Position numbers and translations under genes: made by a program
Part shown: piece after piece, positions 8,501 through 62,520 of the stretch
How positions within the stretch are numbered: position 1 is the first letter of the stretch
Layout of the letters: the number at the start of each line of letters is the position of its first letter
The notes under the pieces: model-generated
Told to the model about the DNA's origin: nothing
Seen by the model: the letters and a program-made list of their open reading frames with translations, nothing else
Databases searched by the model: none
Assembly (NCBI GenBank): GCA_964016885.1
Contig: OZ024747.1
Coordinates: 70,432,001-70,496,000 of the forward strand
Direction of reading: 5' to 3'
Source of the DNA: Eledone cirrhosa
Lineage: Eukaryota
DNA: 64,000 nucleotides

Positions 8501-10385
8501 ATGAGTACCAATGATCATTAGTGGAATAAATGAAGAGAGCAGCTGGAAGTCAAAAGAATTCAATTACAGGTCATCCCCACACTCTTCTGAAATCACACTA
8601 CAAATTTTACTGTTTGATTTTTCATTGCTATAAAGGATTATGGAGATCAGTAGATGAAATCATTGGTGTTGTGCCTGACAAAACATATTTTATTTCAAGT
8701 CGCATTTGGGACATAAGAGTCTCACTAGATTTTACCGGACCAATCACCAAAACAATGCATTTATGATGCTCGAATTAGAAAGAATATTGCACAGAACTTC
8801 ATTCAAAAGTAATTCAAAAGTTTCGGTTTATTCATATAGATAGCTACACCCCTACCCACATATATACTGCTGGTTTTTGCATATTCCTTCTAAGAAAATA
8901 CATTCAAAAGATATTGGCCAAACTGAGGATCTAGAAGAAAAAAAATTAAAAGTGACCTACATTGGGATGGAACATGGAACAAAATGCTGACAAACAGAAT
9001 TACTTAGCCACACAACCGCATTGCAGTATTAGGGATTTAGTTGCAATCGCACCGAAAGTCTATCAGATAAGTACTTTTTACTTGCGGAGAGTAATTCAAT
9101 GTAATGTCCTTCCCTAGAATTTCTCTGCGTGGAATATTTACCTTAGTAATATCTCCTGTATGCATGTATATGTTTCTATGTAGTGATCAAGGGTAATAGC
9201 GCGAATAAGTCACTGATAGCTTGTTACGTTTCTTCGTTAGTCTGCCCTGCTTCTTTGACGTATAAAACCCCAGACTCATGACACTTCATTATCCCAATGG
9301 AGAAAGCAGCTACCATGGATCTGCAGCTGCATTCATGTTGCTTGTAGAACCGGAGGCTTGGGTCTCAGAGAAACACGGATGCAGAGGCAGTTGCTGTCCA
9401 GTTGAGTAGCAGTTGGCAACGAGGGCACAGATATGGAGTTTAGGTGAACAAATCTTTATTAGATGATATACGAGCTGACCTGTATTTAATTTTCCTGTTC
9501 TACATTAGCCTAATCCACTACATCGTTTAAAACCCAATTAACCTTCTCTCACAATTTCGCTTCATAACCAGAATGTTTTTCGTCATGCTAAAACAAACCA
9601 GCATTATATATAACTTGATAAAACATCAAGCATCACTACTATCTGGTATTGAACCAGTATAGACTTGGGTACACACACGAACAACATATCAAAGTCAACG
9701 TCAGTGTTTCTGTTTATTCAGATATGACTCTCCAGAGAATTCTCCCCTTTTAAATCAAAAAGAAATGTAATTCTATTCAGCTAATATCCCTTCAACTAAA
9801 GCCTTACTGGACAACCTATCCCCGAACATTTCAGATGTATAATGACACTCTGGTAAATTATTTCAATGTTCTTCGCATTTCTTCGACATGTTTTCTGTCT
9901 TGAGAGACTTGTCAGTCCTCTTGATACTCTTTCGAAACGTAACAGTGTTAAGCAAATGCAAAAGATGCTGTCAAAATCCAATTTTAATATCGAATAACCG
10001 GACAACAACATTCTCATAGGAATTCCGAAAAGTTTCTTTTTATTCAAACTATATTTTCCTCTGAATAGAAAAAGTTATCTGATGCACAAGTAAATAAATT
10101 CTATAAGGCTTAATAAGTATTTGTAACAGCTGCAGAAAGCGATATCTGTATCAGTAATTCACAATTCGTTAAACGGAAAATAAAAATAATAAGTAAATAA
10201 GGATTTTATTTTTTCTTCTATTGAATAACTCCCAAAATTTGTAATTCTCTTTAGAGAAAACAAATTTCGTTAAAAACATTTTCAGAAATATTTTCATTAT
10301 CAAATTGTAGCCAGTGTCCCTAACAAAACCGTCGGCTAAATATAATTAAAAATCACAATAACAGGAAGATTAATATTAAAAATAA

Positions 10386-10695: not shown

Positions 10696-11063
10696 TTGTT
10701 CAGGTATTTCTGTTGTTGACAAATTGTAAATGTTCACGAAAACACTGACAGTCTCACCATCACCATCACCTATGGCATTAGCAGAGTTTTTCTTATATCA
10801 GTGGTACAGTCTTTTCTTATATCAACATTTTTTCTATCAAAAATTGTTGAATTAATAAATGTGATGTGAATTTCTTAATCCACAGCGTGGCGGATTCATC
10901 GAAAAGACTCGATGAATAAATATTACAAAAATAAGAACAATGTTCCTAAGCAAACATGAGTGTCACTTGTATTTCCCTCCCCATACATTGGTGACCAAAA
11001 GCCCCTGCCCACATCTCCGTGAACATATGGTTAAGTAATAACTGAACCCGCACACACACACAC

Positions 11064-11184
<121 letters not shown>

Positions 11185-11413
11185 TATATATATATATACA
11201 TATATATATATGTATATATATATGTAAATGTTATGTATATATATATATATATACATTTTATTCTGGATATGAGTTATCACATAAATGGTTTATATAAATA
11301 TTAGTAATAATAATAAATTAGAAGACTAAAATCCAAAGAGGGCTCGATAAGGATGAATATGTATCAAATATATAAGAACCGTAGAGCAAATATTTATTAA
11401 AATAACAGATTAC

Positions 11414-11464
11414 AGTTTAAGCAAAGAATCGCTGCTTTAACCCTTAACGGGATCTTCTGAAACT
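11414..11464 (-). ncRNA. Hammerhead motif copy with damaged GAAA (UAAA); the copy at 19150-19200 (-) has core CAAAAGA
   Basis: Reverse complement of the family motif with single core substitutions. Confidence 0.55.
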
Positions 11465-12390
11465 AACAAAGTCAATCTGTAAACGCAGAAATGGATATTT
11501 CAAAAAACGTTGCAACCGGAGGAAGACAGGAAGACGATACTTTGGTTCCTGGAAACGTTCGCTGGCTAAGAACGGGAAAAAACGAATATAATACGTCATT
11601 AATAGGAGCGGTGAAAAACAATTACGCGCAAAGACAGAACCACGTTTATGGTATAAAAGAGGTCGTAGACTAATGTTCTCTTAGATGGTGCATAGAGACG
11701 TTCTCTGGCAATGCACGAAAAAAACGAAGATAATACGTCATATGTGGAGCGTGGAGAACAATAGCACGCAAAGACAAAACCACGTAAATGGTATAGCAGA
11801 AGTCGTAGACTAAATTCTAACTAGGAGACCGAATGAATCTCCGCTACAGAGTTAAGAAATAAATACAACACAGAAGTAATAGAAATAAATAAATACATAC
11901 ACGCAAACAAATACATACATACACAAGCATACGCAAAAACTTACCATAGGTAAACAAAACCACGCACATATAAATGTGTGTGTGTGTGTGTAAGCGTGTA
12001 TACAAATAAATAAATAATTATATAAACGTATATAAATAAATAAATACGTATATAACAAGCGCACACACATACCTACATGTAAATACACGAATGTTCGGAG
12101 ACGTAAGTCCACCAAAATATGAAGTACACATATACACACGCCCTACATACGTACGAACCTGCATACTCACACAGACGCAAAACTCCCGTATACACATAGC
12201 CGAACCATATGTACCAGAATATATGAAAAAATTATACGCCATAACAACCAAATATACGTACGAGAAGGTATATGTACCTTCACAAAACATACGGATAATA
12301 TATACTTACCTATGCAAATAAGTAAAGGTATAAACAAAACATATACTTAGCTCCCACATCGAGACGTAGAATATCCACGTATAGATCGTA

Positions 12391-13570
12391 CTATCCGTTA
12401 GGGTATAACGTGGTGCTGTAATACAGGAAAGTTTTGTGCAATTTATGTTTACAGGCCGAAATTGCCTCAGATTTTTTGTTTAAGATGTGGTCTGTGGCGT
12501 AGAGTATTTCCAGGGCCTCAGCGGCGCAGAGGTCACATGGTCTTTTATTTCCGTTATACGATCTAGCCCTAGCTAGGATCTCCCAGTGTAACTTATATTG
12601 TGTGTGGTTGTCTTTTAGACTCCAGATATAAGCTGAAAGTGACGTCATATTCCTTCTTAGAGGGTAACGAAAAGAATGGGTATGCATGTAAAGACGCTGC
12701 TTGAATCTATTGGCAGTTAACCCTATGTAGGCCCTACGGGACGTGGGTGTTACAACCTTACATTTGTAGACAATGTTACTAGAGAGGCATTTCCCGGATA
12801 GGGGGCAATCAACCCAATTCCTACAATTACAGTTAGTACTAACTACAGGGTTGCACGTGTTCCTACGGCTAGGTAGTTTAGCTAAATTTGAAGCTGTGAT
12901 GTTATGTGCAAGGTTATGAGTCGTAGAGTAAGAAATTTTAATAGTATTTCTATTAAAAATTTTACTATATTTATGTGTAGGGGGAAAATGCTTCGTAATA
13001 AGGGAAAGAAAGATCTTAGCTAATGGTGTGGCCACCTCCACATTATATGGTGGGTTATACCAACAAATGCGACGGGATCTATTTCTTCTAGTTCTATTTT
13101 CGTACTCTGTATATGCTACCTTATCGACAAATCCACTTCGAGCAAGAGCTTCATTGTAATAAGTGGAATGGTCCTTGAAAATACGCTCGTTGGTGGAAAG
13201 ACGGGAAAGCCTCAACGAAACGTTTCTTACCAGGTTCTTGGTTACGCTGGCAGGATGGTTGGAATGCTTACTTATGTAAGTAAGCGTATCATTTGGCTTT
13301 CTATACGGGTAATACAACCCATTCAATAAGTTGAGGGTAACGTTGAGGTAATTAACGACCGAGAGGTTGGCCTCAACCTGTATAGAAAGGTTGAAGCCTT
13401 TAAAGAAGGCTGTGAGTTCTTTTCTGAACCTGTCGCAAGAACGAGGTCCGCACTTAGTCATGGTCAAAAGACCATCGTCACGGTACAAACCACCGCTCGC
13501 GTTGGGGAAATCGTCCTTGATAGAGAAAAGAAGAAAAAGGCCGATAAGATAATTAACCTCCGCAGAATCA
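12391..13570 (-). pseudogene. C-terminal half of PLE protein (RT YRDD, thumb, CxC linker, GIY-YIG), uninterrupted but 5'-truncated
   Basis: ORF 12391-13488 (YRDDGL...CNCRNWVDCPLSGKC...AYIGLTANRFKQR...CDLCAAE...CKH); the frame stays open to the truncation near 13570. Confidence 0.9.
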
Positions 13571-13575
13571 CTGTT

Positions 13576-13814: not shown

Positions 13815-14102
13815 GTTTCTACTTTTGGCACAAGGCCAGCAATTACCCAGTTCATTACTGGTACTTTACTTTATCGACCCCGTAAGGATATATAATGACA
13901 GGGTTTGAGTGTGGTATGGATTGAAAAGTGGTCCACTACGGAAGTAGGAGCTACAGAACAAAGAAAGTGTGGTGTGAAACCAGCTGGAACAGAGTATTCG
14001 ATAATTAGGGCAGTAGAGTCACTCTAGTACCCTACGTATCGAGCACTCTGGTGCGTTATGGTCCACCTGGTTTCTTACCACACTTCCTTTGTTATACATA
14101 TA

Positions 14103-14145
14103 TATCGAGCCCTCTTCCGATTTTAGTCTTCACATTTATTATTAT

Positions 14146-14209
<64 letters not shown>

Positions 14210-14323
14210 TTATTAAAATAACAGATTAAAGTTTAAGCAAAGAATAGCTGCTTTCACCCTTAACGGGATCTATCCTTATCGAGCCCTCTTTGGACTTTAG
14301 TCTTCAAATTTATTATTATTACT
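14103..14323. mobile_element. Short pLTR shards of the main PLE family in mixed orientation (also 35385-35448 and 36153-36226)
   Basis: atcgagccctctt..tattattattact (+) and taaagtttaagcaaagaat..cccttaacgggatc (-) embedded in (TA)n. Confidence 0.8.
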
Positions 14324-15033
14324 ATATATATATAGATATACTATAAAGTATGTCCATAGAATCATTTGATAAGATATATACACCATTTCCTCTCCCGATC
14401 AGCATAATCAACCTCACAAAAAACAATTAAACCAGGCTATAAGATTAAAAGGCACCTATGAAGAAATAATAGATAAATAAACGGCAGCCATCTATTCGCG
14501 ATAAACAGCTATAGAATATTTACCCAGCATTTCAATAGCACGTGGAAATCGATTAAATATATCGTCCACCATACATAATTAGGTATAAAATTAAAATTAG
14601 AAGAAAAAATGTATATAAACATACCAGGATTACGTTTCTACTGCTTGGGATTTCATTCGCTTTTGGAAATATCCGATCAAGGATAAATCTCGAGCTTCGA
14701 AATCACCAGGAAACAAACTCACTTGGACGAAGATTTTTCTTAAATGATTCCAGCCAGAATCGAATTCAAAATGGCTAAGAACTGTGACGTGGCAGTGGTC
14801 AAGTCAGAAAGAATGTGATTGGTGCCTTACGGCGAGTGGGATGGTTGCTAGAAAGCGCAGCCTAATATTGCCTAAATTGCATATGGGAGATTATCAAATA
14901 TAAAGATTTACATGTACACAAACTAGACAAAGTCATATATATATATGTCTTGGGCAACCATTCACGATGTGGCTCAATGATGAATTAATTAATTTAATAA
15001 TCAGAGCAATATACTATAAAGTATGTCCATAGA

Positions 15034-15074
<41 letters not shown>

Positions 15075-15079
<5 letters not shown>

Positions 15080-15270
15080 AACAAGTAAGACCCCGACAGC
15101 TGAGCTCAAGCCGTTTCGACGGCTAATTCTGTACTGAATTAGCCGTCGAAACGGCTTGAGCTCAGCTGTCGGGGTCTTACTTGTTCCTATTACCCACTCT
15201 ACTACCCTAAGTATTGAGTACTTTGGTGTGTTATGGTCCACCTGGTTCTTTACCACTTTTCTTTCGTTAT
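15075..15270 (+). mobile_element. Hairpin pLTR element (55-bp perfect inverted arms + about 80-bp tail) in (TA)n
   Basis: Arms 15075-15129 / 15136-15190; each arm holds the 3' half of an HHR (GAAA-CGGC...GCUG-UC). Confidence 0.8.
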
Positions 15271-19099: not shown

Positions 19100-19126
<27 letters not shown>

Positions 19127-19130
<4 letters not shown>

Positions 19131-20398
19131 TATTAGAATAACAGATTAAAGTTTAAGCAAAGAATCGCTGCTTTCACCCTTAACGGGATCTTTTGAAACT
19201 AACAAAGTCAATCTGTAAACGCAGAAGTGGATATTTCAAAAAACGTTGCAACCGGAGGAAGACAGGAAGACGATACTTTGGTTCGTGGAAACGTTCGCTG
19301 GCAAAGAACTGGAAAAACGAATATAATACGTCATTTATAGGAGCGGTGAAAAACAATTACGCGCAAAGACAGAACCACGTTTATGGTATAAAAGAAGTCG
19401 TAGACTAATGTTCTCTTAGGTGGTTCATAGAGACGTTCTCTGGCAATGAACGAAAAAACGAAGATAATACGTCATATGTGGAGCGTGGAGAACAATAGCA
19501 CGCAAAGACAAAACCACGTAAATGGTATAGCTCAAGTCGTAGACTAAAATTCTAACTAGGAAACCGTAAGAATCTCCGCTTCAGAGTTAAGAATAAAGTA
19601 AAAAAATACAATACAGAGGTAATAGAAATTAAATAAATACATACACGCATGCAAATACGTACATACACAAGCATACGCGAAAACACTTGCCATAGGTATA
19701 CAAAACGACGCACATATAAATATGTGTGTGTGTGCGTGTATACAAATAAATAAATAAATAAATAAACGTATATAAATAAATAAATACGTATATAACAAAC
19801 GCACACACATACCTACATGTAAATACACAAATGTTCGGATACGTACGTCAACCAAAATATGAAGTACACATATACACACACCCTACATACGTACGAACCT
19901 GCATACTCACACAGACGCAAAACTCCCGTATACACATAACCAAACCATATGTACCAGAATATATAAAATTATACGCCATAACATATACAATCAAATATAC
20001 GTACGAGAAAGTATACGTACCTTCACAAAACATACAGGTAATATATACTTTCCTATGCAAATAAGTAATGGTATAAACATAACATATACTTAGCTACCAC
20101 ATCAAAACGTATATCCACGTATAGATCGTACTATCCGTTAGGGTATAATTTGGGGCTGTAATATAGGAAAGTTTTGTGCAATTTATGTTTACAAGCCGAA
20201 ATTGCCTCAGAATTTTTGTTTAAGATGTGGTCTGTGGCGTAGAGTATTTCCATGGCCTCAGCGGCGCAGAGGTCACATAGTCTAAAAGACAACCACACCC
20301 TATTTAAGTTACACTGGGAGGTCCTAGCTAGGGCTAGATTGTATAACGGAAATAAAAGACCATGTGACCTATGCGCCGCTGAGGCCCTGGAAATACTC
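19127..20398 (-). mobile_element. 3' fragment of the same PLE family with a local 5' inversion (20279-20398 on +)
   Basis: 19127-20278 matches the 3'UTR and ORF end in reverse; 20279-20398 matches about 33611-33730 in forward orientation. Confidence 0.88.
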
Positions 20399-22319: not shown

Positions 22320-22324
<5 letters not shown>

Positions 22325-22516
22325 AAAATGTTCAAGACCCCGACGGCAGAGCTCAAGCCGTTTCGACAGCTATTTCAGTCCAGGAATAGCCATCGAAACG
22401 GCTTGAGCTCTGCCATCGGGGTCTTGAGCATTTTCCTATTATCCACTCTACTACCCTAAGTATCGAGTACTCTGGTGCGTTATGGTCCATCTGGTTCCTT
22501 ACCACACTTCCTTCGT

Positions 22517-27467: not shown

Positions 27468-27902
27468 GTAAGTTACTCTTGAAATAATTCTTAATATATA
27501 AAAACATTTATTTGCAATTGTATTTACTAGTATAGAGAGAGAGGTATCAGAAGGTGAGGGGACATGCGGAATAGTATAGAGAGAGAGGAAGGGGGAAGAG
27601 GTAGGAAGTAGAGTGACAAACTGAGATGGAGGGAGGGGTAGAGGTGGAAGGATTCCTTGGTCAGTTTTGATAGCAGACTTCATGTCATGGAATGTAGTGA
27701 GTTAAAGAGAATTAAATTGATCATAGTGGGAGGGATGGATAGAGAGGGAGAGAGAAAGGGGGAGATATAAAGAGATAAATATATATATAAGTTGAAAAAA
27801 ATGAAAACGAAATTTCATTTCTCACTCTTAGTATGGCACTTACTTAAATGTAAGTATGTATGTATACGCACATACATATATGTATACAGACGTACAGTAG
27901 TA

Positions 27903-27946
<44 letters not shown>

Positions 27947-28116
27947 TATACACATATGCATACAGGTACACATACATATATGCACGCATCAGTTTAGCCG
28001 ACGTTTATTAAAACGCCTGCTTTGTTCGTTTGTTTGTCAACAAATCGAACAGCCTGAATTTATGCCATACGGTGTTAAGGCAACCACGTCACCTTTTTGT
28101 TCAACACTGACACAGG

Positions 28117-28160
28117 AACGATGTACTAGTTTCAAGCTTGTTAGCTATAATCAGCACGTT
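28117..28160 (-). ncRNA. Family A hammerhead with G8U mutation
   Basis: Minus strand core CUGAUUA; stems retained apart from a 1-nt deletion in stem I. Confidence 0.7.
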
Positions 28161-28440
28161 TACCCATCTGCCAGATAGTTGAACGTTCGAAAGTATATAC
28201 TTTCCTTATGAAAATTAACGGCTGAGCAGCCTAATTTGCATATTGAGTGAGTTAAATCGGTCAAGCATACCGAAAACGATAAGTTGAAAAAAAGGTGACG
28301 TGGTTGCCTTAACACCGTATGGCATAAATTCAGGCTGTTCAATTTGTTGACAAACAAACGAACAAAGCAGGCGTTATAATAAACGTCGGCTAAACTGATG
28401 CGTGCATATATGTATGTGTACCTGTATGCATATGTGTATA

Positions 28441-28528
<88 letters not shown>

Positions 28529-28762
28529 TGCTACTGTACGTCTGTATACATATATGTATGTACGTATACATACATACATACATTTAAGTAAGTGCCATAC
28601 TAAGAGTGAGAAATGAAATTTCGTTTTCATTTTTTTCAACTTATCGTTTTCGGTATGCCTGACCGATTTAACTCACTCAATATGCAAATTAGGCTGCTCA
28701 GCCGTTAATTTTCATAAGGAAAGTATATACTTTCGAACGTTCAACTATCTGGCAGATGGGTA

Positions 28763-28807
28763 AACGGTGCTGATGATAGCTAACAAGCTTGAAACTAGTA
28801 CATCGTT
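28763..28807 (+). ncRNA. Intact minimal type-I hammerhead (family A)
   Basis: AACGGUG-CUGAUGA-UAGCU AACA AGCUU-GAAA-CUAG-UA^-CAUCGUU. Confidence 0.88.
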
Positions 28808-28977
28808 CCTGTGTCAGTGTTGAACAAAAAGGTGACGTGGTTGCCTTAACACCGTATGGCATAAATTCAGGCTGTTCGATTTGTTGACAAACAAACGAAC
28901 AAAGCAGGCGTTATAATAAACGTCGGCTAAACTGATGCGTGCATATATGTATGTGTACCTGTATGCATATGTGTATA

Positions 28978-29069
<92 letters not shown>

Positions 29070-29303
29070 TGCTACTGTACGTCTGTATACATATATGTAT
29101 GTACGTATACATACACACTTACATTTAAGTAAGTGCCATACTAAGAGTGAGAAATGAAATTTCGTTTTCATTTTTTTCAACTTATCGTTTTCGGTATGCC
29201 TGACCGATTTAACTCACTCAATATGCAAATTAGGCTACTCAGCCGTTAATTTTCATAAGGAAAGTATATACTTTCGAACGTTCAACTATCTGGCAGATGG
29301 GTA

Positions 29304-29348
29304 AACGGTGGTGATGATAGCTAACAAGCTTGAAACTAGTACATCGTT
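29304..29348 (+). ncRNA. Family A hammerhead with C3G mutation
   Basis: Core reads GUGAUGA; otherwise identical to 28763-28807. Confidence 0.7.
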
Positions 29349-29507
29349 CCTGTGTCAGTGTTGAACAAAAAGGTGACGTGGTTGCCTTAACACCGTATGG
29401 CATAAATTCAGGCTGTTCGATTTGTTGTCAAACAAACGAACAAAGCAGGCGTTATAATAAACGTCGGCTAAACTGATGCGTGCATATATGTATGTGTACC
29501 TGTATGC

Positions 29508-29598
<91 letters not shown>

Positions 29599-29664
29599 TG
29601 CTACTGTACGTCTGTATACATATATGTATGTACGTATACATACATACTTACAATATATATATAT

Positions 29665-30280: not shown

Positions 30281-30633
30281 CAGTATTCTTTCGCGTTGCG
30301 GAAGCAATACGTTCCAGAAAATCATGTTGTTAGGCGAAACAAATTTTTCAATTGATTTACATGTGTATGAAGTGAGATGCATTCCGAGGTATTTTTTTTT
30401 TGAGAAAAGGCACTTACCAAAAACCCAAAAGCAAAAAACTCCTTGTAGGGTTAATGATAGCAACTTCTATACTTACAAAGTTTCATATGAATACATAAGA
30501 ACATTTGAAGAGAAAATCTTGAAGGAAAGCATGACAATCGTAACATTCGAACATGGTACAGGACACAATATATACATACACAGACGTACACAAATATCAA
30601 CAGTGAAATAATTTACAAATTTTTATAATCACT

Positions 30634-30690
<57 letters not shown>

Positions 30691-30777
30691 GTAAAGTTAT
30701 ATTTAAAATTGTTGGGTTACAACTAGTAAATATTTATAACTGATATAAAAGCACTCGACAAATATTTGGAGTATATT

Positions 30778-31151
30778 TACAATATTAAATAAATGGAAAA
30801 CTATATTTATAAAACCATATTTATTTCATTATATATATTTCGGGGATATCATATTAACAATATGCTATGCCTTCATCAGACAAAATACAATATAAACAGT
30901 TTTATAGATAAATATATTCGACATACCGTAATAAACATCAACTTCATTTGAAGAGGTTTACGCTAGCGTAAACATCTTCAAATGAAGTTGATGTTTATTA
31001 CGGTATGTCGAATATATTTATCTATAAAACTGTTTATATTGTATTTTGTCTGATGAAGGCATAGCATATTGTTAATATGATATCCCCGAAATATATATAA
31101 TGAAATAAATATGGTTTTATAAATATAGTTTTCCATTTATTTAATATTGTA
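30778..31151. repeat. Spacerless palindrome with 187-bp arms made of a PLE-type pLTR
   Basis: Centre cgct|agcg at 30964/30965; only one mismatch seen, near the centre. Confidence 0.93.
31042..31107 (+). ncRNA. Minimal hammerhead (mirror copy 30822-30887 on -)
   Basis: UAUUUUGU-CUGAUGA-AGGCAUAGCAUAUU GUU AAUAUGAUAUCCCC-GAAA-UAUAUA-UA^-AUGAAAUA. Confidence 0.75.
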
Positions 31152-31198
31152 TATGTATATATATATATTTGTATGTATGTATATAATTTTATGTACAG

Positions 31199-31256
<58 letters not shown>

Positions 31257-31288
31257 ATCTGTACATAAAATTATATACATACATACAA

Positions 31289-31371
<83 letters not shown>

Positions 31372-31515
31372 CAAGTGATTATAAAAACCTGTGAATTATT
31401 TCACTGTTGATATTTGTGTACGTCTGTGTATGTATATATTGTGTCCTGTGCCAAAGTATCGTCTTCCTGTCTTCCTCCTGTTGCAACGTTTTTTGAAATA
31501 TCCACTTCTGCGTTT

Positions 31516-31591
31516 ACAGATCGACTTTGTTAGTTTCAGAAGATCCCGTTAAGGGTGAAAGCAGCGATTCTTTGCTTAAACTTTAATCTGT
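31516..31591 (+). ncRNA. Type-I hammerhead ribozyme motif, U4A core variant, in 5' pLTR
   Basis: AGUUU-CAGAAGA-UCCC GUUAA GGGU-GAAA-GCA...UGC-UU^-AAACU, with distal stem I ACAGAU(C)G/UAAUCUGU beyond a bulge. Confidence 0.7.
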
Positions 31592-31736
31592 TATTTTAAT
31601 AAATATTTGCTCTACGGTTCTTATATATTTGATATATATTTATCCTTATCGAGCCCTCTTTGGATTTTAGTCTTCAAATTTATTATTATTACTATTTGGC
31701 TCCCTCGGTTGAGCACTCTATTGACTTATATTCATC

Positions 31737-33840
31737 ATGCAGAAACAACACCTGAATATTTCTACAAAGAACATACCCGTACCAAGCAGGAAAACATACC
31801 TAAAACTCCTGATACAGAAAACAGACGCGTTCATTAAAAGGTTGCGTTGGCGTGCCTTTTATTTCGATAATCCGCGAAAAGCAGACAACAAACAGGATAA
31901 ATTTGGGTGTAAAACCTATAATAACCCTCCGTGTAACCCAGCATTGCTACCCTTCGAAAATGATGTCTTGGAACTCATACGGAGTATCACATTTCGAAAT
32001 AGGAGCAATTCCTTCCAGCAGGACCTGAAGAATAGAATTCCTTCCATTAAGGATTCTAATGCCGTGCACGTCCATTCCGACAAAACTGGCAACCTATATC
32101 AAGTGGAGCGCAGTACTTACCATCAACTACTACATAATACTGTAACTAAGGATTACCGTAAAACTAATCGGTGCGTCATCAATGAAATCAACGATGCTGG
32201 GTTTAAAATCACCTCTGGACCGGACCGAACCTCTGGACACTATTTCTCCCCACTTTACCCTGAAGGATCACAAATCCAATTTTCCGAACAACCCCTCTAT
32301 TCGGCTTATTAACCCTACGAAGTCCGATTTAGGTAGACTTAGTAAAAGGATTCTTGATAGAATTATACCTGAAATTAGAAGTTTGGCCCCTCTTGCACTG
32401 TGGAACAATTCTTTCGCGGTGATTGATTGGTTCAACGGCATATGCAACAAGGAACATTGCCGTTTTATCCAATTCGACATCAACAATTACTACACCTCCA
32501 TAACTTTACCACTTCTCCTTAGAGCTATCAATTTCGCTAAAACACTCACAGTGGTTAAGGATTTCGAAGTTGATGTCATCCTCGATGCCCGTAAGTCGGT
32601 GATTAATTTCGACGACTCTATTTGGATTACAAAATCCAATAGTAACCCATTCGACGTGAGTATGGGCGCCAGCGATTCTGCGGAGGTTACTGATCTTATC
32701 GGCTTTCTCTATCAAGGACGAATTCCCCAACGCGAGCGGTGGTTTGTACCGTGATGATTGTCTTTTGACCATGACTAAGTGCGGACCTCGTGCTTGCGAC
32801 AGGTTCAGAAAAGAACTCACAGCCTTCTTTAAAGGCTTGAACCTCTCTATACAGGTTGAGGCCTATCCCTCGGTCGTTAATTACCTCGACGTTACCCTAA
32901 ATTTATCGAATGGGTTGTATTATGCGTATAGAAAGCAGAATGATTCGCTTAATTACATAAGTAGGTATTCCAACCATCCTGCCAGCATAACCAAGAACCT
33001 GGTAAGAAACGTTTCGTTGAGGCTTTCCCGTCTATCTACTAACGAGCATATTTTCAACGACCATTCCACATATTATAATGAAGCTCTTGCTCGGAGTGGA
33101 TTTGTCGATAAGGTAGCATATACAGAGTAGGAAAACAGACCTAGAAGAAATAGATCCCGTCGCATCTGTTGGTATAACCCACCATATAATATGGAGGTGG
33201 CCACACCATTAGCTAAGATCTTTCTTTCCCTTATTACGAAGCATTTTCCCCCTACACATAAATATAGTAACATTTTTAATAGAAATACTATTAAAATTTC
33301 TTACTCTACGACTCCTAACCTTGCACATAACATCACCGCTTCAAATTTAGCTAAACTACCTAGCTGTAGGAACACGTGCAACCCTGTAGTTAGTACTAAC
33401 TGTAATTGTAGGAATCGGGTTGATTGCCCCCTATCCGGGAAATGCCTCTCTAGTAAGATTGTCTACAAATGTAAGGTTGAAACACCCACGTCCCGTAGGG
33501 CCTACATAGGGTTAACCGCCAATAGATTCAAGCAGCGTCTTTACATGCATACCCATTCTTTTCGTTACCCTCTAAGAAGGAATATGACGTCACTTTCAGC
33601 TTATATCAGGAGTCTAAAAGACAACCACACCCAATTTAAATTACACTGGGAGATCCTAGCTAGGGCTAGATTGTATAACGGAAATAAAAGACCATGTGAC
33701 CTCTGCGCCGCTGAGGCCCTGGAAGTACACTACGCCAAAGACCACATCTTAAACAAAAAATTTAAGGCAATTTCGGCTTGCAAACATAAATTGCACAAAA
33801 CATTCCTGTATTACAGCCCCAAATTATACCCTAACGGATT
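31737..33840 (+). pseudogene. PLE RT-GIY-YIG polyprotein, disrupted
   Basis: ORF pieces 31737-32312, 32182-32754, 32744-33130 and 33191-33988 join into one protein. There is a frameshift near 32220, an 11-nt deletion near 32703 (versus the 13.5-kb copy, which reads IGLFLLFSIKDDFPNASGGLYRDDG) and an in-frame TAG at 33128 (TAC in the other copy). The native stop has mutated TAG>TTG near 33839. Confidence 0.92.
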
Positions 33841-34436
33841 GTACGATCTAAACGTGGATATTTTACGTCTTGATGTGGTAGCTAAATATATACCAGTTTT
33901 GTTTATACCATTACTTATTTGCATAGGTAAGTATATAGTACCTGTATGTTTTGTGAAGGTACGTATACTTTCACATACGTATATTTGATTGTTTATGTTT
34001 GGCGTTTACATTTTTTATATATTCTGGTACATATGGTTTGGTTATGTGTATACGGGAGTTTTGCGTCTGTGTGAATATGCAGGTTCGTACGTATGTAGGG
34101 TGTGTGTATATGTGTACTTCATGTTTTGGTTGACTTAGGTCTCCGAACATTTGTGTATTTACATGTAGGTATGTGTGTGCGCTTGTTATATACGTATTTA
34201 TTTATTTATATACGTTTATTTATTTATTTATCTATTTGCATACACGCACGCACACACGCACATATTTATATGTGCGTGGTTTTGTTTACCTATGGCAAGT
34301 GTTTTCGCGTATGCTTGTGTATGTATGTATTTGCATGCGTGTATGCATTTATTTAATTTCTATTACCTCTGTATTGTATTTATTTACTTTATTCTTAACT
34401 CTGAAGCGGAGATTCATTCGGTTTCCTAATTAGAAC

Positions 34437-34690
34437 TTAGTCTACGACTTGAGCTATACCATTTACGTGGTTTTGTCTTTGCGTGCCATTGTTCTCCACG
34501 CTCCACATATGACGTATTATCTTCGTTTTTTCCGTTCATTGCCAGAGAACGTCTCTATGAACCACCTAAGAGAACATTAGTCTACAACGTCTTTTATACC
34601 ATGAACAAGGTTCTGTCTTTGCGCGTAATCGTTTTTCACCGCTCCTATTAATGACGTATTATATTCGTTTTTTCCCGTTCTTTGCCAGCA
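34437..34690 (+). repeat. Diverged 140-bp tandem duplication inside the PLE 3'UTR
   Basis: ttagtctac at 34437 and 34577; present in all three copies. Confidence 0.8.
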
Positions 34691-34785
34691 AACGTTTCCA
34701 CGAACCAAAGTATCGTCTTCCTGTCTTCCTCCGGTTGCAACGTTTTTTGAAATATCCACTTCTGCGTTTACAGATTGACTTTGTT

Positions 34786-34836
34786 AGTTTCAGAAGATCC
34801 CGTTAAGGGTGAAAGCTGCGATTCTTTGCTTAAACT
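34786..34836 (+). ncRNA. Hammerhead motif (U4A variant) in 3' pLTR
   Basis: Same fold as 31532-31582, with one stem III mismatch (GCU). Confidence 0.65.
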
Positions 34837-34943
34837 TTAATCTGTTATTTTAATAAATGTTTGCCCTACGATTCTTATATATTTGATATATATTTATCCT
34901 TATCGAGCCCTCTTTGGATTTTAGTCTTCAAATTTATTATTAT

Positions 34944-35085
<142 letters not shown>

Positions 35086-35137
35086 TTACATATATATATA
35101 TATATATGATATATAATGTATATATATATATGTAAAC

Positions 35138-35168
<31 letters not shown>

Positions 35169-35171
35169 CAC

Positions 35172-35214
<43 letters not shown>

Positions 35215-35719: not shown

Positions 35720-35724
<5 letters not shown>

Positions 35725-35902
35725 AAAAGGTTCAGGACCCCGACGGCAGAGCTGAAGCCGTTTCGACAGCTATTTCTGGGTTCCAGAAATAACCGTCGAA
35801 ACGGCGTGAGCTCTGCCGTCCGAGTCCTGAACCTTTTCCTATTACCCACTCTACTACCGAAAGTCTCGGGTACTCTGGTGCGTTATGGATCGTCTGGTTC
35901 TC
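35720..35902 (+). mobile_element. Hairpin pLTR element, third copy
   Basis: Arms pivot at tttctggg|ttccagaaa; same tail. Confidence 0.78.
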
Positions 35903-36039: not shown

Positions 36040-36221
36040 TGTATATATATATATAAATATATATATATCAATGATATATATATACATATTATATATATAT
36101 TATATATACATATTATATATATATATACATATGTATTATCTATATATATATATAGTAATAATAATAAATTTGAAGATTAAAATCCAGTGATTCTTTGCTT
36201 AAACTTTAATCTGTTATTTTA

Positions 36222-36293
<72 letters not shown>

Positions 36294-36367: not shown

Positions 36368-37320
36368 TAAATGGAAACTATATTTATAAAACCATATTTA
36401 TTCTATTATATATATTTCAAGGGTACCAAAACTTTGGTACGCCCTCATCAGATAAAATACAAAGTTTGTTTTATAAACAGTGACATACCCAGGAATCAGA
36501 CCCTAACGGTTCAAGGTTTAAATGAAGCAGTGAGTAAGTCAAGGTTTATATGAAGGAAATTTACGTTGGTAAGATTAGTATCTATAGTATTTTAAGATTT
36601 AGGTCAGAGAATAGTTTAATTAAATCTTTACGAAGTGTCGAGGTCATGGCCATTGGTGGTATGAGAGACTGCTAGTCCGTCATCTTGATATAACCCGATG
36701 GTATGACTTGGGAGTTTTCCCTTTATTGTGTATAGAAAGAACAAACCGACCAAATCACACACATCGACACTGTCAAAGGAGCCCATAGAGACATCAAAAG
36801 GGTTTTCTGGATTAGATCTGTTTCCCCAAGATTCATTTTTGGCAAAAAGTCAAGTTTTCCGGGCATGTAAAATTACTTACTCTTCTAAATCGGATATATT
36901 AGTGTAATATTTTGCGAAATCTAATGCTTTGGCTAATAAAGATTGAGTAATAGAGGAATAGATGTCTATTATATCGAATTGAGTGAATCAAGATATATTT
37001 TTATCAGGTATAATATTAAACCATGAAACTACTGAAGATATATTAAGCCATTGATTAGTTGTGTTTTACTTCTTATTTCTAATATTATATTTCTCAATAT
37101 TTTTTTACTGGCAAGACCGATTTCTGATTTAGCATGGTTAATGAGTCTACAACTAGGTCTGTTATTGAAATTTATTTTGTGGTCTTTCAATGTAATATAG
37201 GCTATACGTTTAGCTCGGCTTTCAGTTCTATTCTCAATTTTTAATTTACTTGCAATGTCTTTAGCTTCAATATTTATATTATTAAGGGTGTTACTTTTGG
37301 CATTTTGATATTTGGTAGTG
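36368..37320 (-). mobile_element. Degenerate Hydra-like PLE: RT fragment (about 36550-37320) joined to an HHR-bearing pLTR
   Basis: AYITLKDHKINFNNRPSCRLIN..KSEIG, QFDI, PFDVSMGSFDS, LYQDDGL across frameshifts and stops. Confidence 0.85.
36399..36459 (-). ncRNA. Minimal hammerhead related to 31042-31107
   Basis: UAUUUUAU-CUGAUGA-GGGCGUACCAAAGUUUUGGUACCCUU-GAAA-UAUAUA-UA^-AUAGAAUA. Confidence 0.8.
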
Positions 37321-38112: not shown

Positions 38113-38228
38113 ATAAGTTGAAAAAAATGAAAACGAAATTTCATTTCTCACTCTTAGTATGGCACTTACTTAAATGTAAGTATGTATGTATACGTACATA
38201 CATATATGTATACAGACGTACAGTAGCA

Positions 38229-38308
<80 letters not shown>

Positions 38309-38639
38309 CAGGTACACATACATATATGCACGCATCAGTTTAGCGGACGCTTATTATAACGCCGCTTTGTTCGTTTGTCAACAAACTGAACAGCCTGAAT
38401 TTATGCCATACGGTGTTAAATAAGGAAGGTATATACTTTCGAACGTTCATCTATCTGGCAGATGGGTAAACGGTGCTGATGATAGCTAACAAGCTTGAAA
38501 CTAGTACATCGTTCCTGTGTCAGTGTTGAACAAAAAGGTGACGTGGTTGCCTTAACACCGCATGGCATAAATTCAGGCTATTCAGTTTGTTGACAAACGA
38601 ACAAAGCGGCGTTATAATAAGCGTCCGCTAAACTGATGC

Positions 38640-38698
<59 letters not shown>

Positions 38699-38735
38699 TG
38701 CTACTGTACGTCTGTATACATATATGTATGTACGT

Positions 38736-38745
<10 letters not shown>
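38113..38745. repeat. Second locus of family A (inverted partial 38113-38419 + forward 38420-38745)
   Basis: High identity to 27787-29651; flanked by (TA)n. Confidence 0.88.
38469..38513 (+). ncRNA. Intact minimal hammerhead (family A)
   Basis: Identical to 28763-28807. Confidence 0.88.
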
Positions 38746-38775
<30 letters not shown>

Positions 38776-38777
<2 letters not shown>

Positions 38778-39655
38778 CAATTAAGTTAAAAATGTACATC
38801 CACATATGTATACTGAAATACTAGTATGCATATGAATACACACACGTATACATATGTAGATGTACCGAGTTTTTCACTGGTCACTTTACTGTGAGTGTCC
38901 AGCTATTCTGTATGTAAACACACAGACAAACCGGTTTTTAGAGTCATACTGGTTTTTGAGGAAACACCTTTCCTCTATTCTCCAGAAAGCCAGGCAAGGA
39001 ATATTGAACTAGTTTCGATGTTGTTACATCTCATCAGCAATATTTACCTATCTTCCGGCCTCTCTAGAGAATCGTAAAAGCACATATCGTTATATGCTTT
39101 TTCTATGAAAATTAGTAGTGGGCAGACTAATTTGCATAGAGCGTGAGTACGTACCGGTTCAACGGAGACGATAAAAACAAATAACGAAACGAAATTAAAT
39201 TTCGTTTCATTTGTAACTCACTTTTGTATGACTGACGCTTAAACAATTAAGTTAAAAATGTACATCCACATATGTATACTGAAATACTAGTATGCATATG
39301 AATACACACACGTATACATATGTAGATGTACCGAGTTTTTCACTGGTCACTTTACTAGTTCAATATTCCTTGCCTGGCTTTCTGGAGAATAGAGGAAAGG
39401 TGTTTCCTCAAAAACCAGTATGACTCTAAAAACCGGTTTGTCTGTGTGTTTACATACAGAATTGCTGGACACTCACAGTAAAGTGACCAGTGAAAAACTC
39501 GGTACATCTACATATGTATACGTGTGTGTATTCATATGCATACTAGTATTTCAGTATACATATGTGGATGTACATTTTTAACTTAATTGTTTAAGCGTCA
39601 GTCATACAAAAGTGAGTTACAAATGAAACGAAATTTAATTTCGTTTCGTTATTTG

Positions 39656-39660
<5 letters not shown>
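38776..39660. repeat. Non-coding 466-bp HHR repeat (family B), about 1.25 units then an inversion near 39355
   Basis: aacaattaagttaaaaatg at 38776 and 39242; 39355-39660 is the reverse complement of unit sequence; flanked by (TA)n. Confidence 0.88.
39000..39044 (-). ncRNA. Intact minimal type-I hammerhead (family B)
   Basis: AAUAUUG-CUGAUGA-GAUGU AACA ACAUC-GAAA-CUAG-UU^-CAAUAUU. Confidence 0.9.
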
Positions 39661-39698
<38 letters not shown>

Positions 39699-39880: not shown

Positions 39881-40056
39881 ATAGGAACAATTAGGACCCC
39901 GACGGCTGAGCTCAAGCCGTTTCGACGGCTAATTCTGGACTAATTCTCAGCCGTCGGGGTCCTACTTGTTCCTATTACTCACTCTACTACTCTAAATATT
40001 GAGTACTTTGGTGCGTTATGGTCCATCTGGTTCCTTACCACATTTCCTTCATTATA
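39881..40056 (+). mobile_element. Hairpin pLTR element, fourth copy (internal deletion in right arm); a tail-only relative lies at about 13960-14095
   Basis: Same termini and tail (actctactac.ctaa.tat.gagtact.tggtgcgttatggtcca). Confidence 0.75.
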
Positions 40057-40769: not shown

Positions 40770-42008
40770 ATGTTAACAATGTTTGTACGTATACTCCAAC
40801 AATGACTTTCATTCTATTTTCTCTCTCTTTCTCTCTCTCTCTCTTTCTCGTTCTCTCTCTCTCTCTCACTATATATATATATAGAGAGAGAGATGAGGAG
40901 AGGTGCTACTTCAGAGTTCGGCTCTTCACACACACACACATATATATGCGTGTGTCTGAGGGGGGGGGGGTCTGTCTGTGTGTTTGTGTCTCCCAGGTAC
41001 TATCGCGCAATGCTTTAATCATCTCTTCCTAGCCAGAGCACATTACACCCAGTATCGACATCCTACTATCAATTCGTCTATATATTATCAAGAATCAAGA
41101 AAGAAGAAAGAAAAAGTAATGTCCAGTATTGAAGTAACGTTCTTTAAAACAATCCTCTTTAAAATTCCCATACATTCATACGTCAGCTTTCTAATATTTC
41201 AACACAGTACAAACCCCTACCGTAATCATGGATTACGGTAGGGGTTTGTACTGTGCTGAAATCACGCTTCATTAAATCATATATATATATATATATACAT
41301 ACATATATATATATATCCTACACCACTGGTAACACGCTCTGGACATCCTCCTTTTTATACCCGGATTTTTTCACCATCTGTCCATACACTCACCGGGAAA
41401 ACATTCAGGAACACACAAACTTACACAAACACTTACACCATTTTCGCAGAAACGCAACCATATATTCCCACGTATCTACACCACACAAAACACACACACA
41501 CACACGTGCGTATCCTCACATACACCTACACGGCCTCCGGACTCCGCACACGCCCTCTCCCCACCTCCTCCGACCCCTCTCCATCCACACGCACACACAC
41601 ACTGACTTACACCCCACCCCATTTACACACTTTTTTCCCATTACCCGAACATGGAATCTCGTTCTTCCCCAAACTCTCACACTCATATTCACACACACAC
41701 ACGTACACCTACACACATACACACATACCACCTTCCGCCCTCCCCACTCGGACCCCTTTTTCCTTATCCCCTTCCTCCGTCCACCCACCACCACCTCTAC
41801 ACGCCTCACACCCTTTTACCACTTGTTTTCATTTTAATTGTTTCCCTCTTTTCAATTTTTTTTCCTTATCTTTAATCCAACTCCCCTTTTTAATGTCTTT
41901 CCAACACTCCCTCACACCCTGGGAACTCTTTTTCCTTCCTGTCTTTTTAATGTCTTTCCACCACTCCCACTCACACCCTCGGAACTCTTTTTCCTTCCTG
42001 CTTTTCTC

Positions 42009-49273: not shown

Positions 49274-49537
49274 ATATTAATAAAAGGAATTCCAACTTCA
49301 GGTTCATAATGTGTGGTGACAGTCTAGTTTGCAATTTTCAACAGTTGAAAATTGCAAACTTGACTGTCACCACACATTATGAATCTGAAGATTGCGAAAG
49401 CATGAAAGTACTTGTTCAATTAACAATTAACATTTAATATTCTACCATACTATTTCATTCTAATACCATTATAAATTTTAAACGATTGTAAATAAAACGA
49501 GTAAATCAGACAAAGTTGGAATTCCTTTTATTAATAT
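49274..49537. mobile_element. Mini pLTR remnant: about 25-bp terminal inverted repeats, internal 45-bp-arm fold-back, one HHR
   Basis: tattaataaaaggaattccaactt / aagttggaattccttttattaata at the ends; hairpin centred near 49343. Confidence 0.75.
49380..49418 (+). ncRNA. Minimal hammerhead
   Basis: UGAAU-CUGAAGA-UUGC GAAA GCAU-GAAA-GUAC-UU^-GUUCA. Confidence 0.8.
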
Positions 49538-61824: not shown

Positions 61825-62520
61825 AGAAAGGGGAGGGGGGTTGAGTTCATTAGGGAAACTGAACCCACGGCGGAAAATCAGATTCTATCCTGGTGCGCGA
61901 GGCCAGGAATCTATGATGTAAAAGGGCAGCAAGGATTGAGGAGTGGCCAGAGGAACTGAAATGACGAGCGACGGGTTTATCCATGCCGAGTCCTATGTCT
62001 CTCAAGTGTTCAGCGAAACGGTCTGACAGACGACGGTCTATTTGTCCGTTGTATGAGGACCCGCAAAAGGAACATCGGAGGGCATAGACTAAGCGGGTAG
62101 ATGTGCAGGTGAAATAGTGGTGGATACGGAAGGAACCGTTAGTGCCTGTGAGAGTATTGAGATTAGAAATGAAGGTATAGGTGTCAGAGCGTGGACAACA
62201 ACAGGGAGGATGCTGGGTGCAGTTTGAGGAGAGGAAGGAAAGGATCTGTGTACAAAGAGGTGGCAGATATTACAGGCAGGCTTAAAGCGGTGACGGGTGA
62301 GCCTGGAAAGAAGAGAGATGTGACGACGTCAGAAAAGTGAGTGCGGAAGTTGAGGAGGATTTGTCGCCGGAGATATAGTGTGGTGGGGTGGTAAGTGAGG
62401 GGGAAAGGAAGGTGTGTCCTGGTGGAGGAACAGGGTAAGGGCATATATATATATATATATGGAACAGGATAAGGATATATCTACGCTAGATAAAGCGGGG
62501 GTGGGGTCATGTTTTGACAC
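61825..62520 (-). mobile_element. Degenerate Neptune-like PLE, linker + GIY-YIG with CCHH
   Basis: Minus strand PLTYHPTT..., then FTCTSTRLVYALRCSFCGSSYNGQIDRRLSDRFAEH...PVARHF. Confidence 0.8.

Follow-up and report, generated by a model that had tools for sequence, protein, structure and literature searches.

Non-LTR retrozymes of animals are non-coding tandem units of low GC content, each with one type I hammerhead ribozyme whose weak helix III is palindromic, and they are bordered by target duplications of >4 bp (PMC7229834; bioRxiv 10.64898/2026.07.22.740005; here and below, cited sources are represented by the accessible part of their text). Their RNA forms circles (PMC7229834), and expression and cleavage have been shown. 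Mobilization by Penelope-like elements (PLEs) through such circles has so far been a proposal (PMC7229834; bioRxiv 10.64898/2026.07.22.740005). According to the accessible text of the preprint, retrozymes, mostly of vertebrates, derive from the pLTRs of PLEs. Multimeric reverse transcription of the circles has likewise been proposed (PMC7761336, PMC4209133). In cephalopods, 235 hammerhead loci were counted in the giant squid (PMC6962438).

Insertions of PLEs, especially those of the Hydra clade, comprise an inverted, 5'-truncated copy, a tail of 30-40 nt at one end, target duplications of 8-10 bp and a preference for (TA)n (PMC8557442, PMC3846280). The tail is described as optional, and self-priming has been put forward to explain the inverted pLTR (PMC3846280). 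Another account attributes the tail to endonuclease resolution and calls the origin of the inverted arms and the one-sided tail an open question (PMC8557442). In vitro, the Anolis PLE Poseidon PAc nicks and extends both strands of an AT-rich target, initiates near a stem-loop at a pair of neighbouring internal positions of the RNA that mark the limits of the tail, is predicted to form a dimer, and inserts without a need for ribozyme cleavage (PMC11167929).

We analyzed a 64,000-nt stretch of Eledone cirrhosa contig OZ024747.1, hereafter the window, and characterized one copy of a tandem family, family B, at 38776-39662. The copy does not form an array but comprises 1.25 units on the minus strand and an inverted 0.66-unit arm, joined head-to-head within (AT)n. 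The long arm (38776..39356, minus strand, 581 bp) begins at unit position 117, includes the ribozyme and terminates at 38776 in a fixed outer end, P1 (unit ~231). The inverted arm (39354..39662, plus strand, 309 bp) begins 7 nt ahead of the cleavage site, shares 3 nt with the long arm and has its outer end at a second fixed position, P2 (unit 302). As the first-pass annotation stated, the unit is 466 bp long: 38776-38890 recurs at 39242-39356, and tandem arrays of this period occur genome-wide. This length lies at the upper end of the range reported for metazoan retrozymes in the accessible text. A copy of the ~70-nt tail, spanning the P1-to-P2 positions, lies internally at 39171..39241 (minus strand) and includes a 13-bp hairpin at 39183-39211. 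The flanks (38750..38775 and 39663..39695) are (AT)n; the left flank is pure microsatellite, which renders the target duplication illegible here. Base counts gave a GC content of 36%, and the copy has no ORF of at least 90 aa. With a single whole ribozyme, it would presumably be unable to release a monomer on its own.

The minus strand carries a hammerhead at 38975..39072, with an extended and bulged stem I and a core at 39037-39013, in agreement with the earlier reading of this locus as a ribozyme. Stem I pairs 39044-39038 with 39006-39000 and is followed by the CUGAUGA core (39037-39031), a stem II of 5 bp capped by loop AACA (39030-39017), and GAAA-CUAGUU (39016-39007). The CUGANGA...GAAA...NUH core with an open helix I assigns it to type I, and a palindromic ACUAGU stands where a stable stem III would be. 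The RNA is predicted to cleave itself in type I fashion after GUU, between 39007 and 39006. Its region folded with -34.6 kcal/mol (z=-4.9 against 200 shuffles), whereas the family A ribozyme described below, folded alone, did no better than shuffles (z=-0.5). In Rfam, the hammerhead matched HH9 with E=3.9e-6 and 33.1 bits, under the gathering score of 52, and a search at the gathering score returned no match for it. Members of family B have either GUU or GUC as their cleavage triplet; by locus, position 17 is U in 100, C in 57, A in 30 and G in 1.

A related family, A, has two insertions in the window. One adjoins the B copy (38113..38756; core 38476-38500, plus strand) and has a two-arm P2/P1 layout like that of B; the other (27787..29651; core at 28770) has P2 at its left and P1 at its right. 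In the latter insertion, the first core C of the last ribozyme, at 29311, is replaced by G; judged by its sequence, this ribozyme is probably inactive. The two families had been described as homologous only in blocks. They are instead collinear from end to end and ~71% identical: 306 of 429 aligned pairs are the same, and the global alignment score was 195, compared with -29+/-15 for 200 shuffles. The first-pass annotation had further claimed that stems I and II differ between A and B but pair in both, and that the core, loop II AACA, loop III CUAG and an upstream GG.AGAU.GGUAAA are conserved. Compensatory pairing and all of the conserved elements are present in A and B, but stem II of A forms only four of five pairs, with a U-U at its base, and loop II reads AAUA in an older B subfamily. 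A hairpin (TATGCAAATTAG...TAATTTTCATA; ~39105-39140 in the window, minus strand) is also kept in both families. It has what we take to be an octamer-like motif and is a possible promoter or RNA element.

The remaining claim, of a diversified family under selection for ribozyme function rather than a one-off duplication, was borne out by 19,187 A and B motifs in the genome against none in a reversed control. Across 14 ribozyme haplotypes, 95.4% of cells were paired, compared with 39-50% in slid controls, and 13 of 34 stem pairs had changed on both sides, which none of 500 shuffles reached. The compensatory change is genuine, yet it stems from few events: nearly all double changes date from the A/B split, and the one addition is a stem II switch within B from A-U to U-A, counted as a single change when 111 loci (55 versus 56) are placed on a tree. 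With so few independent double changes, a test of the R-scape type would have little power. The best evidence of selection is the rarity of half-changed stem II intermediates (3 + 1 = 4 genome-wide) and a core devoid of lineage-fixed changes: in 94 loci selected by their ends, no variant at the 15 core sites was fixed among the units of its locus, compared with 5.3 expected (P=0.005). By contrast, changes confined to single units, which postdate insertion, occurred at the background rate (1.7 per 1000 nt in the core and 2.3 elsewhere). Transposing lineages thus keep the ribozyme while inserted copies decay; selection acts on the element, and nothing points to a host function. A pattern search for further sister families with another stem II gave five matches, one of which is an old relative of A.

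Family B is a young, abundant, non-coding non-LTR retrozyme that is probably moved in the fashion of PLEs. The exact B ribozyme occurs in 2,559 copies in this 3.0-Gb genome, which is rich in AT microsatellites, and P2 ends followed by AT repeats number 2,334. Among the 40 of 636 candidates scored with a 361-nt B query, matches of 99-100% lay in tandem arrays on several contigs. The unit is present in public sequencing runs of four organisms, two of them with the alternative stem II pair. A search of four runs for an empty allele at one locus (L037) yielded no clean flank-to-flank joint. Near-identical long arrays in (AT)n assemble poorly, and one might take the family for an assembly artefact, for a satellite or product of local duplication, or for a ribozyme retained for host use. 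We consider these explanations highly improbable: the insertions are dispersed over many contigs and have target duplications, short-read contigs from the public runs join AT repeats to both fixed ends and recover many arm-to-arm joints, and the core of inserted copies mutates at the background rate. As a separate observation, one B insertion (L031:855-1148 and 8717-8791) lies within a family A unit, in the (AT)n that this unit has internally; family A brings along a target sequence of its own and so lends itself to nesting.

B insertions consist of two arms head-to-head in (AT)n with outer ends at P1 (unit ~230-231) and P2 (~302). Among 139 B-lineage loci, both ends could be read in 86, ends were ambiguous in 16, and a single arm was seen in 37, several of which do have a second arm of 10-15 nt. 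The readable two-arm loci paired P1 with P2 in 83 of 86 cases and P1 with P1 in three; P2/P2 was found in none of the 86. The pairing held in loci that had been chosen by ribozyme or identity rather than by their ends (26 of 26 readable; n=45). For the remaining sets, one end had served as the criterion of choice, and the three P1/P1 loci had been included as apparent exceptions. In a census by coordinates alone (C1, 1-117 Mb), 38 of 40 were P1/P2, and the one P2/P2 case proved to be two separate insertions. Locus L174 appeared to be P2/P2 at first look; its short arm abuts other sequence, and it was scored as ambiguous. Eight family A loci follow the same P1/P2 pairing. The family A locus L087 has an end inside an AT run and was scored as ambiguous. 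In both families P1 maps within or next to the loop of a predicted small hairpin; P2 follows a long one. At L093:2480-2500, a B arm is preceded by a short stretch that resembles the P2 end of family A; from its sequence, this locus is a possible A/B chimeric insertion.

The target is duplicated. Duplications of at least 8 nt flank 30 of 32 informative loci outside microsatellites, compared with 129 of 992 mismatched flank pairs, and the median is 10 bp in the 20 least AT-repetitive loci, longer than the >4 bp by which retrozymes are recognized. The insertions also have an inverted 5'-truncated copy, a tail at one end and a (TA)n or AT-rich target. This anatomy of inverted arm, tail and short duplications is already known for PLEs, and its presence in B links a retrozyme to PLE chemistry. 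Compared with PLE insertions as described in the accessible text of PMC8557442 and PMC3846280, B has no ORF, its tail measures ~70 nt, both of its arms extend up to many units, and its two ends are nearly always unlike. Two multimeric head-to-head arms with fixed, paired ends are not part of the retrozyme anatomy described in the accessible text of PMC7229834 and bioRxiv 10.64898/2026.07.22.740005. Neither the pairing rule nor a twin-priming account was found in the PLE and retrozyme literature, as covered by main texts and a minority of subscription papers.

The joints between the arms bear on how the inverted arm arises. Arm 5' positions are evenly spread, and the arms are not mirror copies: their 5' ends lie at most 15 nt apart in 10 of 102 junctions, compared with 6.8 expected at random. 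The longer arm ends at P1 in 39 loci and at P2 in 44, and in 29 of 83 each of the two arms is longer than one unit. Overlaps of at least 2 nt occur at 51 of 75 clean joints, compared with 18% at random. In L1 twin priming, head-to-head inversion likewise comes with microhomology at the joint, and the internal site to which the second primer anneals is variable; in B, by contrast, both start sites are fixed, ~70 nt apart. Hypotheses from the PLE literature (PMC3846280, PMC8557442, in their accessible text) suggest another origin, in which a single priming event is followed by fold-back self-priming that yields the inverted arm and by endonuclease resolution that yields the tail. We regard this origin as quite unlikely for B. 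Some 8-10 of 102 junctions are palindromic, some of them with 18-37 nt of overlap, and arm stops are enriched near hairpins, as fold-back would have it. However, 92 of 102 junctions link unrelated unit positions, either arm can be the longer one, and both outer ends lie at fixed positions with a duplication of ~10 bp.

The sequence of the units speaks to the template. The two arms of a locus share one haplotype, and arm-specific variants in multiple units were seen in two loci. In one insertion, a substitution is present in 16 of 16 covering units, seven in the minus-strand arm and nine in the plus-strand arm, and nowhere else in the 3-Gb assembly. At another locus, a different substitution marks 19 of 19 internal units, and among 98 matches no other array of at least three carries it. 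Arms run through the cleavage site in 177 of 238 cases. These arms would be explained most simply by two polymerases that each copied one circular monomer over and over; evidence for a single template was not found in the PLE and retrozyme main texts covered. Template editing by ADAR was considered and set aside: private, locus-fixed changes were A>G in 11 cases and T>C in 4 (RNA sense; p=0.07, not significant), and singletons in B units were A>G in 29 and T>C in 35.

The same element might instead copy a linear, uncleaved read-through RNA, the homogeneous arms reflecting its donor array or later unequal exchange or gene conversion. In vitro, unprocessed RNA does serve PLE insertion (PMC11167929, accessible text), and arms that cross the cleavage site would fit equally well. 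We nevertheless judge a linear template unlikely. The variant shared by all covering units of both arms has no donor in 3 Gb, and that of the second locus is as uniform, although the source of a private variant could be a donor array that this assembly lacks. Two older arrays (L103 and L106) hold 30-46 singletons, and arrays that keep such unit-specific changes indicate that homogenization is slow. Selection on the catalytic core also requires that cleavage matter. Arm stops are enriched about twofold at unit 1-31 and 249-279, both structured; at unit 1-4 there were 6 compared with 1.8 expected (two of them parsing artefacts), a slight excess by which some templates may be linear.

Our preferred explanation, which we hold to be probable, is that each locus is one insertion in which a PLE reverse transcriptase/endonuclease was primed on both nicked strands and rolled round one circular 466-nt RNA. 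We infer the following course. A tandem array would be transcribed, and the ribozyme would cut the RNA into monomers, probably as a dimer held through the ACUAGU palindrome; ligation of the monomers would yield circles. A PLE dimer would then bind the tail region and place one nick in each strand of AT-rich DNA, with an offset of ~10 bp that creates 3' overhangs. Both outer ends are 3' ends in the RNA sense, so both target strands would have primed, and together with the duplication of ~10 bp this implies nicks with 3' overhangs of ~10 nt. One overhang would prime at P1 and the other at P2, and the two cDNAs would end at largely random points before being joined by microhomology. The three true P1/P1 insertions, the 37 one-armed loci and several junctions that are perfect fold-backs count against this explanation, as do the tail, which is longer than in described PLEs, and the dispensability of ribozyme cleavage for Poseidon PAc insertion in vitro.

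We lean somewhat towards a more specific version, in which an asymmetric PLE dimer nicks the strands one helical turn apart, starts two cDNAs from two fixed sites, and has both polymerases roll round one circle. If correct, this version would give PLEs and animal retrozymes a common explanation for their inverted arm, one-sided tail and tandem arrays, and would define a cis element of ~70 nt for gene insertion primed on both strands. Poseidon PAc resembles B in its two tail-bounding starts, stem-loop and AT-rich target; the accessible text of PMC11167929 reports for it no strand difference in start site, pairing rule or nick spacing. Metazoan retrozymes have been followed to the level of RNA (PMC7229834; bioRxiv 10.64898/2026.07.22.740005), whereas B is known here from genome sequence. 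As a ribozyme family B is ordinary; its value is that it is very young and abundant, with insertions that can be counted, and these yield a pairing rule, a nick spacing and genomic evidence for a monomer template.

The mobilizing enzyme is probably a Hydra-clade PLE, as suggested by (TA)n targeting and identical anatomy. The window holds a broken element of this clade (31451..35196, plus strand), so classified by setting its RWR/RWK-like, DKT and CxCX5C motifs against the accessible description in PMC8557442. Other damaged copies of it, together with very short terminal insertions that have two arms, lie at 11051-13573, 19126-20398, 14088-14345 and 36152-36229. Its two end sites are separated by 89 nt and are paired, and eight of eight readable terminal insertions (one more was ambiguous) are paired as in B. 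Its hammerhead-like motif reads CAGAAGA, not CUGANGA. By analogy, this PLE indicates the class of the enzyme rather than the actual partner. An autonomous PLE with termini or a pLTR homologous to B was not found in the three families examined: 30 Neptune-type loci, 30 loci of one Hydra-like family, and the Hydra family of the window. Five ORFs of the window had no match in Pfam. Of the candidate partners, the Neptune-type PLE was rejected as its 30 loci carry another hammerhead, and the Hydra-like family, which is fused to B at one locus, as its 3' ends are unrelated in 30 loci. At that locus (L156:2786-4565), a B arm is joined via three shared bases to the end of the Hydra-like ORF in the same orientation, a possible template switch judging by the joint. 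An inverted copy of the flank lies upstream of the fusion.

Several other repeats were observed in the window. An endonuclease remnant of a Neptune-type PLE lies at 61850-62269 (minus strand); there are 11,316 candidates genome-wide, and its relatives carry their own hammerhead. A palindromic element (30554-31453 and 36415-36451) has a different hammerhead on each arm (cores at 31050, plus strand, and 30879, minus strand), and its outer ends seemingly both lie at one position, unlike those of A and B. Short palindromic repeats occur at 41196-41262 and 49296-49390. One further family of such repeats adjoins (AT)n at 15075-15190, 22320-22439, 35720-35842 and 39881-39975, and its members may be terminal insertions of another PLE.
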